This document shows positions 52,041 to 58,069 of a stretch of DNA of 64,000 bases, one piece after another. Each line of letters opens with the position of its first letter. Position 1 is the first letter of the stretch. Source of the stretch: Escherichia coli (GTDB taxonomy: Bacteria; Pseudomonadota; Gammaproteobacteria; Enterobacterales; Enterobacteriaceae). The DNA lies in NCBI RefSeq assembly GCF_003334305.1, contig NZ_QOWS01000005.1; one strand, written 5' to 3'. The position numbers and the translations under genes are program-made. The notes under the pieces were generated by a model, which saw nothing but the letters and a program-made list of their open reading frames with translations, was not told the origin of the DNA and made no database searches.

Positions 52041-52802
52041 ATGTCGCTCGTTTGTTCTGTTATATTTATTCATCATGCCTTCAACGCTAACATTTTAGAT
52101 AAAGATTACGCCTTCTCTGACGGCGAGATCCTGATGGTAGATAACGCTGTTCGTACGCATTTTGAACCTTATGAGCGGCATTTTAAAGAGATCGGATTTA
52201 CTGAAAATACCATTAAAAAATATCTACAATGCACTAACATCCAGACAGTGACGGTGCCTGTTCCTGCGAAGTTTTTACGTGCTTCAAATGTACCGACTGG
52301 ATTGCTTAATGAAATGATTGCTTATCTCAACTCGGAAGAACGCAATCATCATAATTTTTCAGAACTTTTGCTTTTTTCTTGCCTGTCTATTTTTGCCGCA
52401 TGCAAAGGTTTCATTACACTATTAACTAACGGTGTGCTATCCGTTTCCGGAAAAGTGAGAAATATTGTCAACATGAAGCTGGCGCACCCATGGAAGCTGA
52501 AAGATATTTGTGACTGCCTGTACATCAGTGAAAGCCTGTTGAAGAAAAAACTAAAGCAAGAGCAAACGACATTCTCACAGATTCTATTAGATGCCAGAAT
52601 GCAGCACGCAAAAAATTTGATACGCGTAGAAGGTTCAGTCAATAAAATTGCCGAACAATGTGGTTATGCCAGTACATCTTATTTTATTTATGCGTTCCGC
52701 AAACATTTCGGCAACAGTCCGAAGAGAGTTTCTAAGGAGTACCGTTGTCAAAGTCACACGGGTATGAATACGGGCAACACGATGAGTGCTTTAGCTATTT
52801 GA
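52041..52802 (+). CDS. ydeO: AraC-family acid-resistance regulator YdeO (253 aa)
   Basis: C-terminal AraC HTH (GYASTSYFIYAFRKHFGNSPKR). Confidence 0.9.
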   Translation: MSLVCSVIFIHHAFNANILDKDYAFSDGEILMVDNAVRTHFEPYERHFKEIGFTENTIKKYLQCTNIQTVTVPVPAKFLRASNVPTGLLNEMIAYLNSEERNHHNFSELLLFSCLSIFAACKGFITLLTNGVLSVSGKVRNIVNMKLAHPWKLKDICDCLYISESLLKKKLKQEQTTFSQILLDARMQHAKNLIRVEGSVNKIAEQCGYASTSYFIYAFRKHFGNSPKRVSKEYRCQSHTGMNTGNTMSALAI

Positions 52803-52850
52803 TTATTTGCTAACGAGTAGTCAACCACGCACGCTACGTAAGAATTATAT

Positions 52851-52883
52851 GGGGCAGCCATTCCCTGCCCCGCGTTGTTTTTA
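52851..52883 (+). terminator. Intrinsic terminator after ydeO
   Basis: ggggcag-ccattcc-ctgcccc followed by gcgttgttttta. Confidence 0.6.
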
Positions 52884-53203
52884 GGCGATATATTTATTGA
52901 AATAAATAAGTGACATCCATCACATATTTATGCACTTGCATAACCTGTTGCATGATTATTTATGATCTCAATTCGGCATTTTGTCAGTAAAATGCAATAA
53001 TTTATTAAATATCAATAAATTAGTTGTTTATCGGCGAGAAATTACTTAATAGAACAGAAAGTAATGTCAACGCTTTATGGACTGTTATTTCCCTTTTTTT
53101 AGCTAAATCTGCTATCTCTTTATGTGACTAACTTCACTTACATCCACTTATTTCTCTTCGTAAAATTACTTCGGAATTAAGTACAATAAGAAGAGGAACA
53201 TTT

Positions 53204-54886
53204 ATGAAGTCTGCATTAAAGAAAAGTGTCGTAAGTACCTCGATATCTTTGATACTGGCATCTGGTATGGCTGCATTTGCTGCTCATGCGGCAGATGATG
53301 TAAAGCTGAAAGCAACCAAAACAAACGTTGCTTTCTCAGACTTTACGCCGACTGAATACAGTACCAAAGGAAAGCCAAATATTATCGTACTAACCATGGA
53401 TGATCTTGGTTATGGACAACTTCCTTTTGATAAGGGATCTTTTGACCCAAAAACAATGGAAAATCGTGAAGTTGTCGATACCTACAAAATAGGGATAGAT
53501 AAAGCCATTGAAGCTGCACAAAAATCAACGCCGACGCTCCTTTCATTAATGGATGAAGGCGTACGGTTTACTAACGGCTATGTGGCACACGGTGTTTCCG
53601 GCCCCTCCCGTGCCGCAATAATGACCGGTCGAGCTCCCGCCCGCTTTGGTGTCTATTCCAATACAGATGCTCAGGATGGTATTCCGCTAACAGAAACTTT
53701 CTTGCCTGAATTATTCCAGAATCATGGTTATTACACTGCAGCAGTAGGTAAATGGCACTTGTCAAAAATCAGTAATGTGCCGGTACCGGAAGATAAACAA
53801 ACGCGTGACTATCATGACAACTTCACCACATTTTCTGCGGAAGAATGGCAACCTCAAAACCGTGGCTTTGATTACTTTATGGGATTCCACGCTGCAGGAA
53901 CGGCATATTACAACTCCCCTTCACTGTTCAAAAATCGTGAACGTGTCCCCGCAAAAGGTTATATCAGCGATCAGTTAACCGATGAGGCAATTGGCGTTGT
54001 TGATCGTGCCAAAACACTTGACCAGCCTTTTATGCTTTACCTGGCTTATAATGCTCCGCACCTGCCAAATGATAATCCTGCACCGGATCAATATCAGAAG
54101 CAATTTAATACCGGTAGTCAAACAGCAGATAACTACTACGCTTCCGTTTATTCTGTTGATCAGGGTGTAAAACGCATTCTCGAACAACTGAAGAAAAACG
54201 GACAGTATGACAATACAATTATTCTCTTTACCTCCGATAATGGTGCGGTTATCGATGGTCCTCTGCCGCTGAACGGGGCGCAAAAAGGCTATAAGAGTCA
54301 GACCTATCCTGGCGGTACTCACACCCCAATGTTTATGTGGTGGAAAGGAAAACTTCAACCCGGTAATTATGACAAGCTGATTTCCGCAATGGATTTCTAC
54401 CCGACAGCTCTTGATGCAGCCGATATCAGCATTCCAAAAGACCTTAAGCTGGATGGCGTTTCCTTGCTGCCCTGGTTGCAAGATAAGAAACAAGGCGAGC
54501 CACATAAAAATCTGACCTGGATAACCTCTTATTCTCACTGGTTTGACGAGGAAAATATTCCATTCTGGGATAATTACCACAAATTTGTTCGCCATCAGTC
54601 AGACGATTACCCGCATAACCCCAACACTGAGGACTTAAGCCAATTCTCTTATACGGTGAGAAATAACGATTATTCGCTTGTCTATACAGTAGAAAACAAT
54701 CAGTTAGGTCTCTACAAACTGACGGATCTACAGCAAAAAGATAACCTTGCCGCCGCCAATCCGCAGGTCGTTAAAGAGATGCAAGGCGTGGTAAGAGAGT
54801 TTATCGACAGCAGCCAGCCACCGCTTAGCGAGGTAAATCAGGAGAAGTTTAACAATATCAAGAAAGCACTAAGCGAAGCGAAATAA
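53204..54886 (+). CDS. ydeN: Periplasmic sulfatase YdeN (560 aa)
   Basis: Signal peptide; sulfatase active-site region with Ser in place of Cys (HGVSGPSRAAIMTGR), implying the Ser-type, maturase-dependent class. Confidence 0.9.
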   Translation: MKSALKKSVVSTSISLILASGMAAFAAHAADDVKLKATKTNVAFSDFTPTEYSTKGKPNIIVLTMDDLGYGQLPFDKGSFDPKTMENREVVDTYKIGIDKAIEAAQKSTPTLLSLMDEGVRFTNGYVAHGVSGPSRAAIMTGRAPARFGVYSNTDAQDGIPLTETFLPELFQNHGYYTAAVGKWHLSKISNVPVPEDKQTRDYHDNFTTFSAEEWQPQNRGFDYFMGFHAAGTAYYNSPSLFKNRERVPAKGYISDQLTDEAIGVVDRAKTLDQPFMLYLAYNAPHLPNDNPAPDQYQKQFNTGSQTADNYYASVYSVDQGVKRILEQLKKNGQYDNTIILFTSDNGAVIDGPLPLNGAQKGYKSQTYPGGTHTPMFMWWKGKLQPGNYDKLISAMDFYPTALDAADISIPKDLKLDGVSLLPWLQDKKQGEPHKNLTWITSYSHWFDEENIPFWDNYHKFVRHQSDDYPHNPNTEDLSQFSYTVRNNDYSLVYTVENNQLGLYKLTDLQQKDNLAAANPQVVKEMQGVVREFIDSSQPPLSEVNQEKFNNIKKALSEAK

Positions 54887-54937
54887 CTAAACCTTCATGC
54901 GGCGGAATTTTCCGCCGCCTTATTGAGCGAGATAGCG

Positions 54938-56095
54938 ATGCACGTTACAGCCAAGCCCTCCAGTTTTCAATGTAATCTCAAATGTGATTACTGTTTTTAC
55001 CTTGAAAAAGAGTCGCAGTTTACTCATGAAAAATGGATGGATGACAGCACTCTGAAAGAGTTCATCAAACAATATATCGCAGCGTCTGGCAATCTGGTCT
55101 ATTTTACCTGGCAAGGCGGTGAACCCACTCTGGCTGGCCTGGATTTTTTCCGTAAAGTTATTCACTATCAACAACGCTATGCAGGCCAAAAACGTATTTT
55201 TAATGCATTACAAACGAATGGCATTTTATTGAATAATGAATGGTGTGCCTTTCTCAAAGAACATGAATTTCTGGTTGGTATCTCGATCGATGGCCCCCAG
55301 GAGTTACATGACCGTTACAGACGCAGTAATTCAGGTAACGGTACTTTTGCAAAAGTGATAGCAGCCATCGAGCGTCTGAAATCATATCAAGTAGAGTTTA
55401 ATACGTTAACCGTCATTAATAACGTTAATGTCCATTACCCTCTTGAGGTTTATCATTTTTTAAAATCTATCGGCAGTAAACATATGCAATTTATCGAATT
55501 GCTAGAAACCGGGACGCCGAATATTGATTTCAGTGGTCATAGTGAGAACACATTCCGTATCATTGATTTTTCTGTGCCTCCCACGGCTTATGGCAAGTTT
55601 ATGTCAACCATTTTTATGCAATGGGTTAAAAACGATGTGGGTGAAATTTTCATCCGTCAGTTTGAAAGCTTTGTCAGCCGTTTTTTGGGGAATGGGCATA
55701 CCAGTTGTATTTTCCAGGAGTCCTGCAAGGATAATCTGGTTGTTGAAAGTAATGGAGATATTTATGAATGCGACCATTTTGTCTATCCACAGTACAAAAT
55801 TGGAAACATTAATAAATCTGAACTCAAAACGATGAACAGTGTACAACTGACAGCGCAAAAAAAACGGATTTCAGCGAAATGTCTGAAATGTGCATATAAA
55901 CCTATCTGCAATGGCGGTTGTCCTAAGCATCGTATTACTAAAGTAAACAATGAGACTGTTTCTTATTTTTGCGAAGGTTATAAAATCCTTTTTTCAACCA
56001 TGGTACCTTATATGAACGCCATGGTGGAGTTAGCTAAGAACAGAGTACCGCTTTACCACATTATGGATGTTGCAAAACAAATGGAGAATAATTAA
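54938..56095 (+). CDS. ydeM: Anaerobic sulfatase-maturating radical-SAM enzyme YdeM (385 aa)
   Basis: Radical-SAM CxxxCxxC motif ([10 protein letters not shown]) plus C-terminal SPASM-type Cys clusters. Confidence 0.9.
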
Positions 56096-56146
56096 TAACG
56101 CTCTCTTAGCTCCAGTCTTAGCCTGCTTCTTATGACCTTAACAAGG

Positions 56147-56178
56147 CACCCGACATAAATTCCTGTCGGGTGTTTCGT
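56147..56178 (+). terminator. Intrinsic terminator after ydeM
   Basis: 9-bp perfect stem cacccgaca / tgtcgggtg followed by tttcgtc. Confidence 0.6.
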
Positions 56179-56383
56179 CATCATCATCTTCCCTTGCGAA
56201 AATCCTGGCTTACGTGGTATGCATCAGGGCATTAGCAATATCCTTGATTATCAATAGCATAACTATAACCACTGAAAATGAAATATTCCTTTATATTTCA
56301 TATTGTTAAATGATACTTAAATAAATTTCATCAGTAAATCATTGCCATAGATAATCATTGGATGGCACAATCAATTTTCGCTA

Positions 56384-58069
56384 ATGATAACCATTCCCAT
56401 TACGTTTTGTATGTTGATAGCAAAGTATCTCTGTCTGTTGAAGCCCTTTTGGCTGCGTAAGAATAATAAAACTTCAGTGCTGTTAATCATTATTATCCTC
56501 GCCATGATCCTTGGCGTGGTTAAAATTCAGGTCTGGTTAAACGACTGGAATAATGATTTTTTCAATGCGCTAAGCCAGAAAGAAACCGATAAGCTTTGGC
56601 AGCTTGTCCTTTGGTTCCCTGCCCTGCTGGGGATCTTTGTATTAATATCCGTGAACAAAACATGGTTAATTAAACTGCTGACTATTCGCTGGCGCGAATG
56701 GTTAACAGATTACTACCTTAATCGCTGGTTTGCAGATAAAAACTACTACTTCACGCAGATCTACGGCGAGCATAAAAATACAGATAACCCTGACCAACGT
56801 ATCGCTGAAGACATTCTCTTACTAATCAGCAAAACGCTCAGTCTTTCATTTGGCTTCATCCAGTCACTTAGCATGCTGATCACCTTTACCGTTATTCTTT
56901 GGCAAAGCGCGGGTACGCTCTCATTCACTGTTGGTGGAACAGAATGGAATATCCAGGGGTATATGGTCTATACCGTTGTGCTCATTGTGATCGGTGGAAC
57001 TTTATTTACCCATAAGGTTGGTAAGCGTATTCGTCCGCTTAATGTGGAAAAACAACGTAGCGAAGCGACATTTCGAACTAATCTTGTGCAGCATAATAAG
57101 CAGGCAGAACTGATTGCGCTAAGCAATGCTGAGTCTCTACAACGCCAGGAGTTGAGCGACAATTTTCATACCATTAAAGAGAACTGGCATCGTTTAATGA
57201 ATCGTCAGCGGTGGCTTGATTACTGGCAAAATATTTATTCGCGCTCGCTTAGCGTTCTTCCCTACTTTCTGTTATTGCCGCAGTTTATTAGCGGGCAGAT
57301 CAATCTGGGCGGACTGATGAAATCGCGCCAGGCATTTATGCTAGTATCGAACAATTTAAGCTGGTTTATTTATAAATATGATGAACTTGCTGAACTGGCT
57401 GCGGTTATCGATCGCTTGTATGAGTTCCATCAACTCACTGAACAGCGCCCTACGAATAAGCCTAAAAATTGCCAACATGCGGTACAAGTGGCTAATGCGA
57501 GTATTCGTACGCCTGATAATAAGATCATATTAGAGAACTTGAACTTTCATGTTTCGCCAGGCAAATGGCTATTACTGAAAGGCTACTCTGGTGCGGGAAA
57601 AACCACACTGCTTAAAACATTATCCCACTGCTGGCCGTGGTTTAAAGGTGATATTTTTTCTCCTGCTGACAGTTGGTATGTGTCACAAACACCGTTAATC
57701 AAAACCGGCTTACTGAAAGAGATTATTTGTAAAGCACTTCCCCTGCCCGTAGACGATAAATCGTTGAGCGAAGTACTGCATCAGGTTGGTCTGGGGAAAT
57801 TGGCTGCGCGTATTCATGACCACGATCGCTGGGGAGATATTCTTTCCAGCGGCGAAAAACAACGTATCGCCCTGGCACGATTAATTTTACGACGTCCGAA
57901 ATGGATATTTCTTGACGAAACTACCTCTCATCTTGAGGAACAAGAGGCTATACGCTTACTGCGTTTAGTGCGTGAAAAACTACCCACAAGCGGCGTCATT
58001 ATGGTTACACATCAACCCGGTGTCTGGAACCTGGCTGATGATATTTGTGACATTAGCACGGTTTTATAA
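56384..58069 (+). CDS. yddA: Fused ABC transporter permease/ATPase YddA (561 aa)
   Basis: N-terminal TM domain and C-terminal ABC ATPase (Walker A GYSGAGKTT, signature LSSGEKQR). Confidence 0.9.
   Translation: MITIPITFCMLIAKYLCLLKPFWLRKNNKTSVLLIIIILAMILGVVKIQVWLNDWNNDFFNALSQKETDKLWQLVLWFPALLGIFVLISVNKTWLIKLLTIRWREWLTDYYLNRWFADKNYYFTQIYGEHKNTDNPDQRIAEDILLLISKTLSLSFGFIQSLSMLITFTVILWQSAGTLSFTVGGTEWNIQGYMVYTVVLIVIGGTLFTHKVGKRIRPLNVEKQRSEATFRTNLVQHNKQAELIALSNAESLQRQELSDNFHTIKENWHRLMNRQRWLDYWQNIYSRSLSVLPYFLLLPQFISGQINLGGLMKSRQAFMLVSNNLSWFIYKYDELAELAAVIDRLYEFHQLTEQRPTNKPKNCQHAVQVANASIRTPDNKIILENLNFHVSPGKWLLLKGYSGAGKTTLLKTLSHCWPWFKGDIFSPADSWYVSQTPLIKTGLLKEIICKALPLPVDDKSLSEVLHQVGLGKLAARIHDHDRWGDILSSGEKQRIALARLILRRPKWIFLDETTSHLEEQEAIRLLRLVREKLPTSGVIMVTHQPGVWNLADDICDISTVL

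Follow-up and report, generated by a model that had tools for sequence, protein, structure and literature searches.

The ydeN-ydeM locus of Escherichia coli: a predicted serine-type sulfatase, its radical-SAM maturase and a conserved stem-loop between their genes

Introduction

The Escherichia coli genes ydeN and ydeM, whose products have long been annotated in strain K-12 as a serine-type sulfatase and its radical S-adenosylmethionine (radical-SAM) activating enzyme, an identification that our sequence comparisons uphold, are separated by a gap of 51 nt which holds a perfect hairpin. The locus raises the question of what a stem-loop is doing between a sulfatase and the enzyme that presumably activates it, and, with this, whether the two proteins form a working pair and which substrate they serve. 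It was analysed in a window of 64,000 nucleotides, the whole stretch of DNA under study, from E. coli contig NZ_QOWS01000005.1 (assembly GCF_003334305.1); all coordinates are those of the window unless another genome is named.

An original prediction, made by a model from the letters of this DNA, had proposed that the hairpin possibly modulates expression of the maturase. Two independent lines of evidence, compensatory changes across genera and a Term-seq 3' end of ydeN RNA lying 8 nt past the stem, support this proposal and mark the hairpin as a real feature. We consider it likely that the two genes form an operon, ydeNM, which encodes a YdeM-activated sulfatase, and that the hairpin is a leaky intrinsic terminator, so that some transcripts carry ydeN only.

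The sulfatase and its maturase

The 3.4-kb region is 100% identical to that of E. coli strain A7 and was found in 5382 of 5426 complete E. coli genomes. The coordinates and identities first given for the two genes are exact and agree with both the open reading frames (ORFs) and the public annotation:

53204-54886, + strand: ydeN, 560 amino acids, b1498 in K-12 MG1655 (ORF and RefSeq annotation of A7, sulfatase-like hydrolase)
54938-56095, + strand: ydeM, 385 amino acids, b1497 in K-12 MG1655 (RefSeq annotation of A7, anaerobic sulfatase maturase; start ATG 54938)
53204-53290, + strand: Sec-type signal peptide of YdeN, MKSALKKSVVSTSISLILASGMAAFAAHA+ADD, read from the translation, with an inferred cleavage site
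53597-53611, + strand: codons S132-G-P-S-R136, with serine at the modified position, aligned with C-G-P-S-R of the S1_19 sulfatases 6bia and 9hh3
54971-54994, + strand: codons of the radical-SAM [4Fe-4S] motif C12-x3-C16-x2-C19 of YdeM, found by alignment to anSMEcpe, the same in all 13 orthologues
55706-55972, + strand: SPASM region of YdeM, with auxiliary-cluster cysteines 257, 263, 278, 315, 318, 324, 328 and 345 and Asp279, each aligned with its anSMEcpe counterpart

YdeN matches the Pfam Sulfatase domain (PF00884; E = 1e-70) from the first to the last position of the model (1-301/301; residues 58-408). None of the NCBIfam equivalogs reached its cut-off with YdeN, so that it cannot be given the name of any particular sulfatase. 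The N-terminus (MKSALKK...AAHA+ADD) lacks both a twin-arginine motif and a lipobox, a pattern repeated in the enterobacterial orthologues. The formylglycine motif, V-S132-G-P-S-R136-AAIMTGR, lies at nucleotides 53594-53629 with the serine codon TCC at 53597-53599, and it follows the C/S-x-P-x-R then xxx-[LM]-T-G-R pattern of the S1 sulfatases. The DD pair, K-W-H, A-P-H, D-N-G and a late lysine are likewise in register with solved S1 sulfatases.

Orthologues from Escherichia, Leminorella, Mixta, Citrobacter, Cedecea, Grimontia, Psychromonas, Anaerobiospirillum and Fusobacterium were combined into a 13-sequence alignment, in which the modified position is serine throughout (13/13) and D66, D67, S132, P134, R136, K183, H185, H286, D345, N346 and K364 are all invariant. 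An active-site alignment had been named beforehand as the analysis that could overturn the assignment; it found every catalytic and metal-binding residue present and invariant, and the sulfatase motif with serine at the formylglycine position was confirmed against solved enzymes as S132-G-P-S-R136. Over its full length YdeN shows every sequence hallmark of the S1 family of serine-type sulfatases and is a predicted member of it. Relative to the S1_19 structures it has about 30 additional residues (~79-108; ~53438-53527) between the DDLGY metal-binding motif and S-x-P-x-R, and the HMMER alignment is split at this point.

YdeM contains Radical_SAM and SPASM domains (Pfam) and scores 501.3 bits against the NCBIfam model for anaerobic sulfatase maturases (TIGR03942; cut-off 349.45). 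Its residues 4-359 align with the anaerobic sulfatase-maturating enzyme (anSME) of Clostridium perfringens, anSMEcpe (PDB 4k36; E = 1e-62). All eleven cluster-ligand cysteines of YdeM and its Cys-Asp pair are kept relative to anSMEcpe and show no variation among the 13 orthologues; the twelfth cysteine, the non-ligand C103, varies among the same proteins. The CxxxCxxC and SPASM cysteine clusters attributed to YdeM from the outset are accordingly present, as C12, C16 and C19 plus eight C-terminal cysteines. By these features YdeM bears all the marks of the anSME family, and we take it to be a probable member.

Linkage of the two genes

A search of a genome collection with YdeN yielded 16 loci, L002-L016 among them, 15 of which reach beyond the ydeN 3' end. 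In all 15, which represent six orders, a ydeM orthologue stands directly 3' of ydeN. The neighbouring genes are unrelated from one locus to the next (ThiI, HtpX, NhoA, FeoB, a GH4 glycosidase, a ROK protein, a sugar ABC permease), and no conserved partner besides ydeN and ydeM was found across the 15. Always adjacent among unrelated neighbours, the pair behaves as a self-contained two-gene module; it follows that genomic context is uninformative on the substrate of YdeN, just as the original prediction had stated when it called the substrate not evident from context.

A different explanation would be that YdeN and YdeM do not function together in E. coli, YdeM either modifying another peptide, as its SPASM peptide-maturase relatives do, or belonging with YdeN to a silent remnant. 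YdeM does score on the peptide-maturase models, DynA, DarW and DarE among them, and IS2 interrupts the locus in some strains (see below). The title of Benjdia 2007 indicates that sulfatase maturation persists in E. coli carrying deletions of aslB and ydeM, and in our literature search no account turned up of a substrate, of sulfatase activity or of formylglycine formation involving either protein. The peptide-maturase scores nevertheless all lie below the respective cut-offs and the anSME model alone passes its curated one; Ser132, the catalytic residues and the eleven cluster cysteines do not vary, the genes stay together in every informative locus despite changing surroundings, and the region is retained in nearly all complete E. 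coli genomes, as counted above. In addition, YdeN protein has been detected in O157 grown anaerobically. We regard the absence of a functional partnership as very improbable.

The intercistronic stem-loop

The hairpin begins 12 nt past the ydeN stop codon and ends 19 nt ahead of the ydeM ATG. Its coordinates and its perfect 8-bp stem are exactly as predicted, and the features of the gap are as follows:

54899-54918, + strand: stem-loop GCGGCGGA-ATTT-TCCGCCGC (in RNA, GCGGCGGA-AUUU-UCCGCCGC), a perfect 8-bp stem with seven G-C pairs and a 4-nt loop
54919-54927, + strand: degenerate U-tract CUUAUUGAG, which carries the dominant RNA 3' end at 54926
54925-54937, + strand: ydeM translation-initiation region, GAGCGAGAUAGCG before the AUG, downstream of the mapped RNA 3' end

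The centroid fold has an energy of -16.3 kcal/mol. Taken alone, the hairpin is unremarkable compared with chance. The window contains 27 hits to a perfect 8-bp hairpin, about 6 being expected at random; when local 30-nt folds of the + strand are ordered by energy, the one in the gap comes at about rank 20, and the fold z-score of the 66-nt region around it is a marginal -1.8. Such figures are what one would expect if it were a chance palindrome, or a copy of an extragenic repeat of the repetitive extragenic palindromic (REP) or bacterial interspersed mosaic element (BIME) kind, with no role in the operon; the flanks ATGCGGCG...CGCCTTAT also appear to resemble parts of the REP consensus. Against this, the median number of places at which an E. 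coli genome carries the 76-nt hairpin region is one, and a scan of positions 52700-56500 against Rfam (E up to 1) matched no family. On these two results the REP/BIME repeat was rejected as a candidate. Compensatory changes across genera whose sequences differ, and an RNA 3' end that maps to the hairpin, stand against a chance origin too, and we give an incidental hairpin next to no credence.

Conservation of the stem-loop

The gap between ydeN and ydeM holds a GC-rich stem followed by a T-rich tail, with differing sequences, in seven gammaproteobacterial genera (Escherichia, Leminorella, Mixta, Citrobacter, Cedecea, Grimontia and Psychromonas). In Psychromonas the equivalent stem is AT-rich; the other elements compared with that of E. 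coli are:

E. albertii: stem-loop GCGGCAGAG-ATCG-CTCTGCCGC, tail CTTAAT
Leminorella: stem-loop GGCAGGGGGA-ATAC-TCCTCCTGCC, tail TTTTTG
Mixta: stem-loop GGATGGCGGG-CGTCT-CCCGCCATC, tail TTATTT
Citrobacter werkmanii: stem-loop GACGGCAGGG-TAC-CCTTGCCGTC, tail TTAATTTT (in RNA, UUAAUUUU)
Cedecea: stem-loop GGCAGGG-AGAT-CCCTGCC, tail GCATTATTTT
Grimontia: stem-loop GGGCAC-ACCC-GTGCCC, tail TTTTTT

RNAalifold recovered the stem from an alignment of eight sequences, with double changes at seven of the eight pairs. By pair counting, 92% of cells were paired, compared with 42-66% in slid controls, and none of 500 shuffles matched the observed values. The sample being small and the sequences related, this covariation is supportive rather than a formal test. 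Among the E. coli variants sampled the stem is invariant and differences are confined to the loop (A/T; TTTT in MG1655) or to the 5' flank. Anaerobiospirillum has long ydeN-ydeM gaps with terminator-like hairpins, and in Fusobacterium the gap is tight (about 45 nt) and the hairpin is absent.

The orthologous U-tracts include UUUUUG, UUUUUU, UUAAUUUU and AUUAUUUU, the terminators of Leminorella and Grimontia being canonical in appearance. In E. coli the tail after the stem is CTTATTGA (in RNA, CUUAUUGA), which begins CTTATT and has four T in eight positions. The statement that the hairpin lacks a T-run consequently stands only in part: the tail does not reach the threshold of a scanner, yet a degenerate run, CTTATT, is present and the orthologues carry better ones.

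Elsewhere in the window, the three most stable 30-nt folds on the + strand lie at 11726-11755, 43152-43181 and 39805-39834, with energies of -22.6 to -20.8 kcal/mol, all of them stronger than the hairpin between ydeN and ydeM.

The RNA 3' end at the stem-loop

In Supplementary Data 2 of PMC10687069, a Term-seq 3' terminus is listed on the minus strand of MG1655 at 1580801-1580810, with 1580802 as the dominant position; each of the three replicates gives R = 1 with an adjusted p of 0, and the terminus is classed as 'Alternative primary in TU' for ydeN. When mapped through the MG1655 sequence, the stem corresponds to 1580829-1580810 and the 3' end to the A of CUUAUUGA, 8 nt beyond the stem, at position 54926 of the window. 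Intrinsic termination usually leaves the 3' end several nucleotides past the stem, with which a distance of 8 nt agrees.

RNAs that finish at this position cannot express ydeM, since its ribosome-binding region lies a little further downstream. A clearer Shine-Dalgarno sequence occurs at the same place in ydeM orthologues (GAGG, GGAG, CAGAGAAAA). TTG 54923 was considered as an alternative ydeM start and rejected: the orthologue alignments begin at Met1, ATG 54938, and the mapped 3' end falls within the TTG extension.

Other transcripts do cross ydeM, as shown by a Rho-termination region near its 3' end, listed in Supplementary file 2 of Adams 2021 at MG1655 1579674 ('internal ydeM'; Rho score 3.37, p = 5e-5). 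This position equals approximately 56054 in the window, 41 nt before the ydeM stop codon. No promoter-like site was found by scanning the 51-nt gap, and ydeM is described as co-transcribed with ydeN, both being over-expressed in a delta-araC strain, in the part of PMC10878103 that cites Stringer 2014.

Termination or protection

Several results weigh against reading the locus as an operon with a leaky terminator and an active enzyme pair, besides the marginal fold z-score of the hairpin and the lack of published activity mentioned above. Intrinsic terminators have a U-tract directly after the stem, where E. coli has a weak tail (4 T/8), and a terminator consensus scan did not call the hairpin; the scan missed it because its threshold is five T in eight. 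Support for the 3' end comes from a single dataset, that of Dar and Sorek for strain BW25113 in LB. The rows listed from the TRS authors' own tables do not include it, and the curated Term-seq list of Adams 2021 contains no 3' end near the hairpin, although the latter absence is uninformative since ydeN is weakly expressed in those media. Finally, Term-seq cannot tell termination from exonucleolytic trimming back to a hairpin.

The last point bears directly on a second explanation, namely that the hairpin is a barrier to 3' exonucleases: RNAs would end or be cut further 3', by Rho in or after ydeM or by an endonuclease, and then be trimmed back, so that the ydeN segment is stabilised and exceeds ydeM post-transcriptionally. 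The poor U-tract of E. coli would suit this explanation, as would the documented Rho-dependent termination region at the ydeM 3' end (Adams 2021) and the origin of the 3' end in the Dar and Sorek study, which by its title concerns the 3' ends of Rho-dependent transcripts. A mere barrier, however, has no need of the canonical U-tracts that directly follow the stem in Leminorella, Grimontia and Citrobacter and that a terminator does need, and the mapped end is at the usual position for intrinsic termination. We think a pure barrier rather unlikely, and prefer the leaky terminator on account of these canonical U-tracts in several orthologues. Whether it acts as a leaky terminator within the operon or protects the RNA upstream of it, the hairpin probably leaves more ydeN than ydeM message, although this ratio is one that we infer.

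Proposed course of expression and activation

With the hairpin as a leaky terminator, expression would proceed as follows. A promoter upstream of ydeN would drive a ydeN-ydeM transcript, in a region where published work has established repression by GadX and, when arabinose is present, by AraC. The stem-loop and the weak U-tract CUUAUU would end a fraction of the transcripts, giving ydeN-only mRNA without the ydeM ribosome-binding site, while the remaining ones would read through into ydeM and end in the Rho-dependent region at its 3' end. The expected outcome is more message for the sulfatase, which would be needed in stoichiometric amounts, than for the maturase, which would act catalytically. 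YdeM, as a cytoplasmic, oxygen-sensitive radical-SAM/SPASM enzyme, would oxidise Ser132 of the still-unfolded YdeN to C-alpha-formylglycine, and YdeN would then be exported via Sec to act as a periplasmic sulfate-ester hydrolase, steps that we predict from knowledge of the family.

As an observation the gene pair is correct but ordinary, the logic of a serine-type sulfatase and its anSME being textbook for the family, and the ydeN 3' end was already present in a public table. What is added here is the link among that 3' end, the hairpin and the cross-genus covariation. The conserved stem-loop and the coinciding published 3' end suggest that the operon holds a built-in device favouring sulfatase over maturase message. 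In our literature search the ydeN 3' end appeared in a data table, and no discussion of the hairpin was found.

Two bolder readings, the stem-loop as a regulated attenuator and YdeN as a sulfatase for galactose- or N-acetylgalactosamine (GalNAc)-4-sulfate, appear improbable. Were the first true, read-through into ydeM would be switched by anaerobiosis, by substrate or by translation of the ydeN 3' end, and an oxygen-sensitive maturase would be made only when functional. Were the second true, E. coli and other gut anaerobes with the mobile module would reach sulfated glycans of the host or its diet, under the control of AraC and GadX.

Comparison with known systems and a substrate lead

The best relatives of YdeN among solved structures are S1_19 and related carrageenan sulfatases (9hh2, 6bia, 6b0j, 6psm and 9fo1; E = 2e-52 to 7e-39), which share with it the aligned formylglycine motif, KWH, APH, DNG and late lysine. 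They differ in being of the cysteine type (C-G-P-S-R in 6bia and 9hh3), in lacking the extra segment of ~30 residues (~79-108) and in having marine substrates, which cannot be transferred to a gut bacterium from homology. Mucin has been speculated to be the target, based on 33% similarity between YdeN and the N-acetylglucosamine (GlcNAc)-6-sulfatase BT4656 (PMC10878103). In our comparison BT4656 (5g2v; E = 6e-30) was a weaker match than the carrageenan galactose-4-sulfate sulfatases, and since the nearest solved relatives act on galactose-4-sulfate, 4-O-sulfated galactose or GalNAc is a better first guess than GlcNAc-6-sulfate. YdeN may therefore act on 4-O-sulfated galactose or GalNAc, which is offered as a lead only. 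These relatives give a concrete first substrate panel; beyond housekeeping the significance of the locus is small.

Klebsiella pneumoniae AtsA/AtsB consists of a serine-type arylsulfatase and its radical-SAM maturase, AtsA being tied to sulfur scavenging. Going by knowledge of the family, the two systems would share a periplasmic S1 sulfatase with S-x-P-x-R, a neighbouring enzyme of the anSME family and the expectation that formylglycine is formed before Sec export. In Klebsiella the maturase gene presumably comes first (atsBA), whereas in ydeNM the sulfatase gene is first and a stem-loop precedes that of the maturase. The published regulation of ydeN (AraC, GadX, acid) is also more like that of a carbon-source gene.

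The clostridial maturase appears to have been studied mainly with substrates of the cysteine type, whereas the presumed substrate of YdeM is of the serine type. The two enzymes (anSMEcpe, PDB 4K36-4K39) nevertheless align at Cx3Cx2C, at both sets of auxiliary-cluster cysteines and at the Cys-Asp pair. As for intra-operon partial terminators and protective stem-loops, the ydeNM element resembles them in having a GC-rich stem-loop in a short gap, an RNA 3' end at that place and a downstream gene reliant on read-through; it does not differ from partial terminators in kind, apart from the weak U-tract in E. coli.

Upstream region and regulation

The genes ydeP, safA and ydeO lie upstream of the pair, and yneP (antisense), yddA, yddB and pqqL downstream. 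The features preceding ydeN are:

52850-52872, + strand: terminator-like site of ydeO, TGGGGCAG-N7-CTGCCCCG then CGTTGTTTTT, found by scanning, canonical, parting ydeO from the ydeN promoter region
52873-53203, + strand: upstream regulatory region of ydeN, from the ydeO terminator up to ydeN itself
53137-53166, + strand: promoter-like site CTTACA-18-TAAAAT, found by a hexamer scan

AraC bound upstream of ydeN only with arabinose (PMC3738151), and ydeN is a direct, repressed target of AraC according to the passage of PMC10878103 that cites Stringer 2014; the claim for AraC at ydeNM rests on these two papers, which cite or use Stringer 2014. Binding of GadX reduces the ydeN transcript (PMC4918353), and ydeN mRNA is about 40-fold down at pH 4.4. 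With a sulfonated azo dye ydeN was the sole gene induced, yet it was dispensable for reduction of the dye.

The exact AraC and GadX binding sites upstream of ydeN could not be located, in the case of AraC by a pattern search of the window. A half-site pattern, TAGC-N7-TCCATA, allowing up to two mismatches, gave 48 matches across the window, against 52 expected by chance, and none of them lay upstream of ydeN. The sole match without mismatches is at 90-106 on the - strand, the overall count being at chance level.

The 3' end of the operon

The features at the distal end of ydeM are:

56054-56173, + strand: operon 3' end, comprising the Rho-termination region and a stem-loop (Adams 2021 and folding)
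56146-56173, + strand: the stem-loop itself, CACCCGACA-N8-UGUCGGGUG then UUUCGUC, 50 nt past the ydeM stop codon

The fold of positions 56090-56190 has a z-score of -3.4, and a protective hairpin and Rho-dependent termination may act together at the end of the operon. The small antisense ORF yneP (56061-56181, - strand) overlaps the ydeM 3' end; compared with MG1655 it has lost 2 nt and carries three substitutions, and the annotation of the identical strain A7 marks it as frameshifted.

Distribution and disruption of the module

The distribution of ydeN-ydeM (L003-L016) is patchy, including a few Enterobacterales together with Grimontia, Psychromonas, Anaerobiospirillum and Fusobacterium, with YdeN identities of 54-96%. 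This spread and the unrelated neighbours suggest that the two genes spread horizontally as a unit, in many cases between anaerobes of the gut. Another locus, L002, is contig JARKOR010000108.1 of a 'Candidatus Nanosynbacter' metagenome-assembled genome, with 100% identity to YdeN and 99.7% to YdeM of E. coli; the contig almost certainly stems from E. coli and was misbinned into a Saccharibacteria genome.

Within E. coli, strain ETEC1722 carries an IS2 in the ydeN-ydeM spacer just 5' of the hairpin (L021, 181-1409), and strain GDG24A39-1PT (H7) has an IS2 within ydeM, indicating that the operon is disrupted in some isolates.

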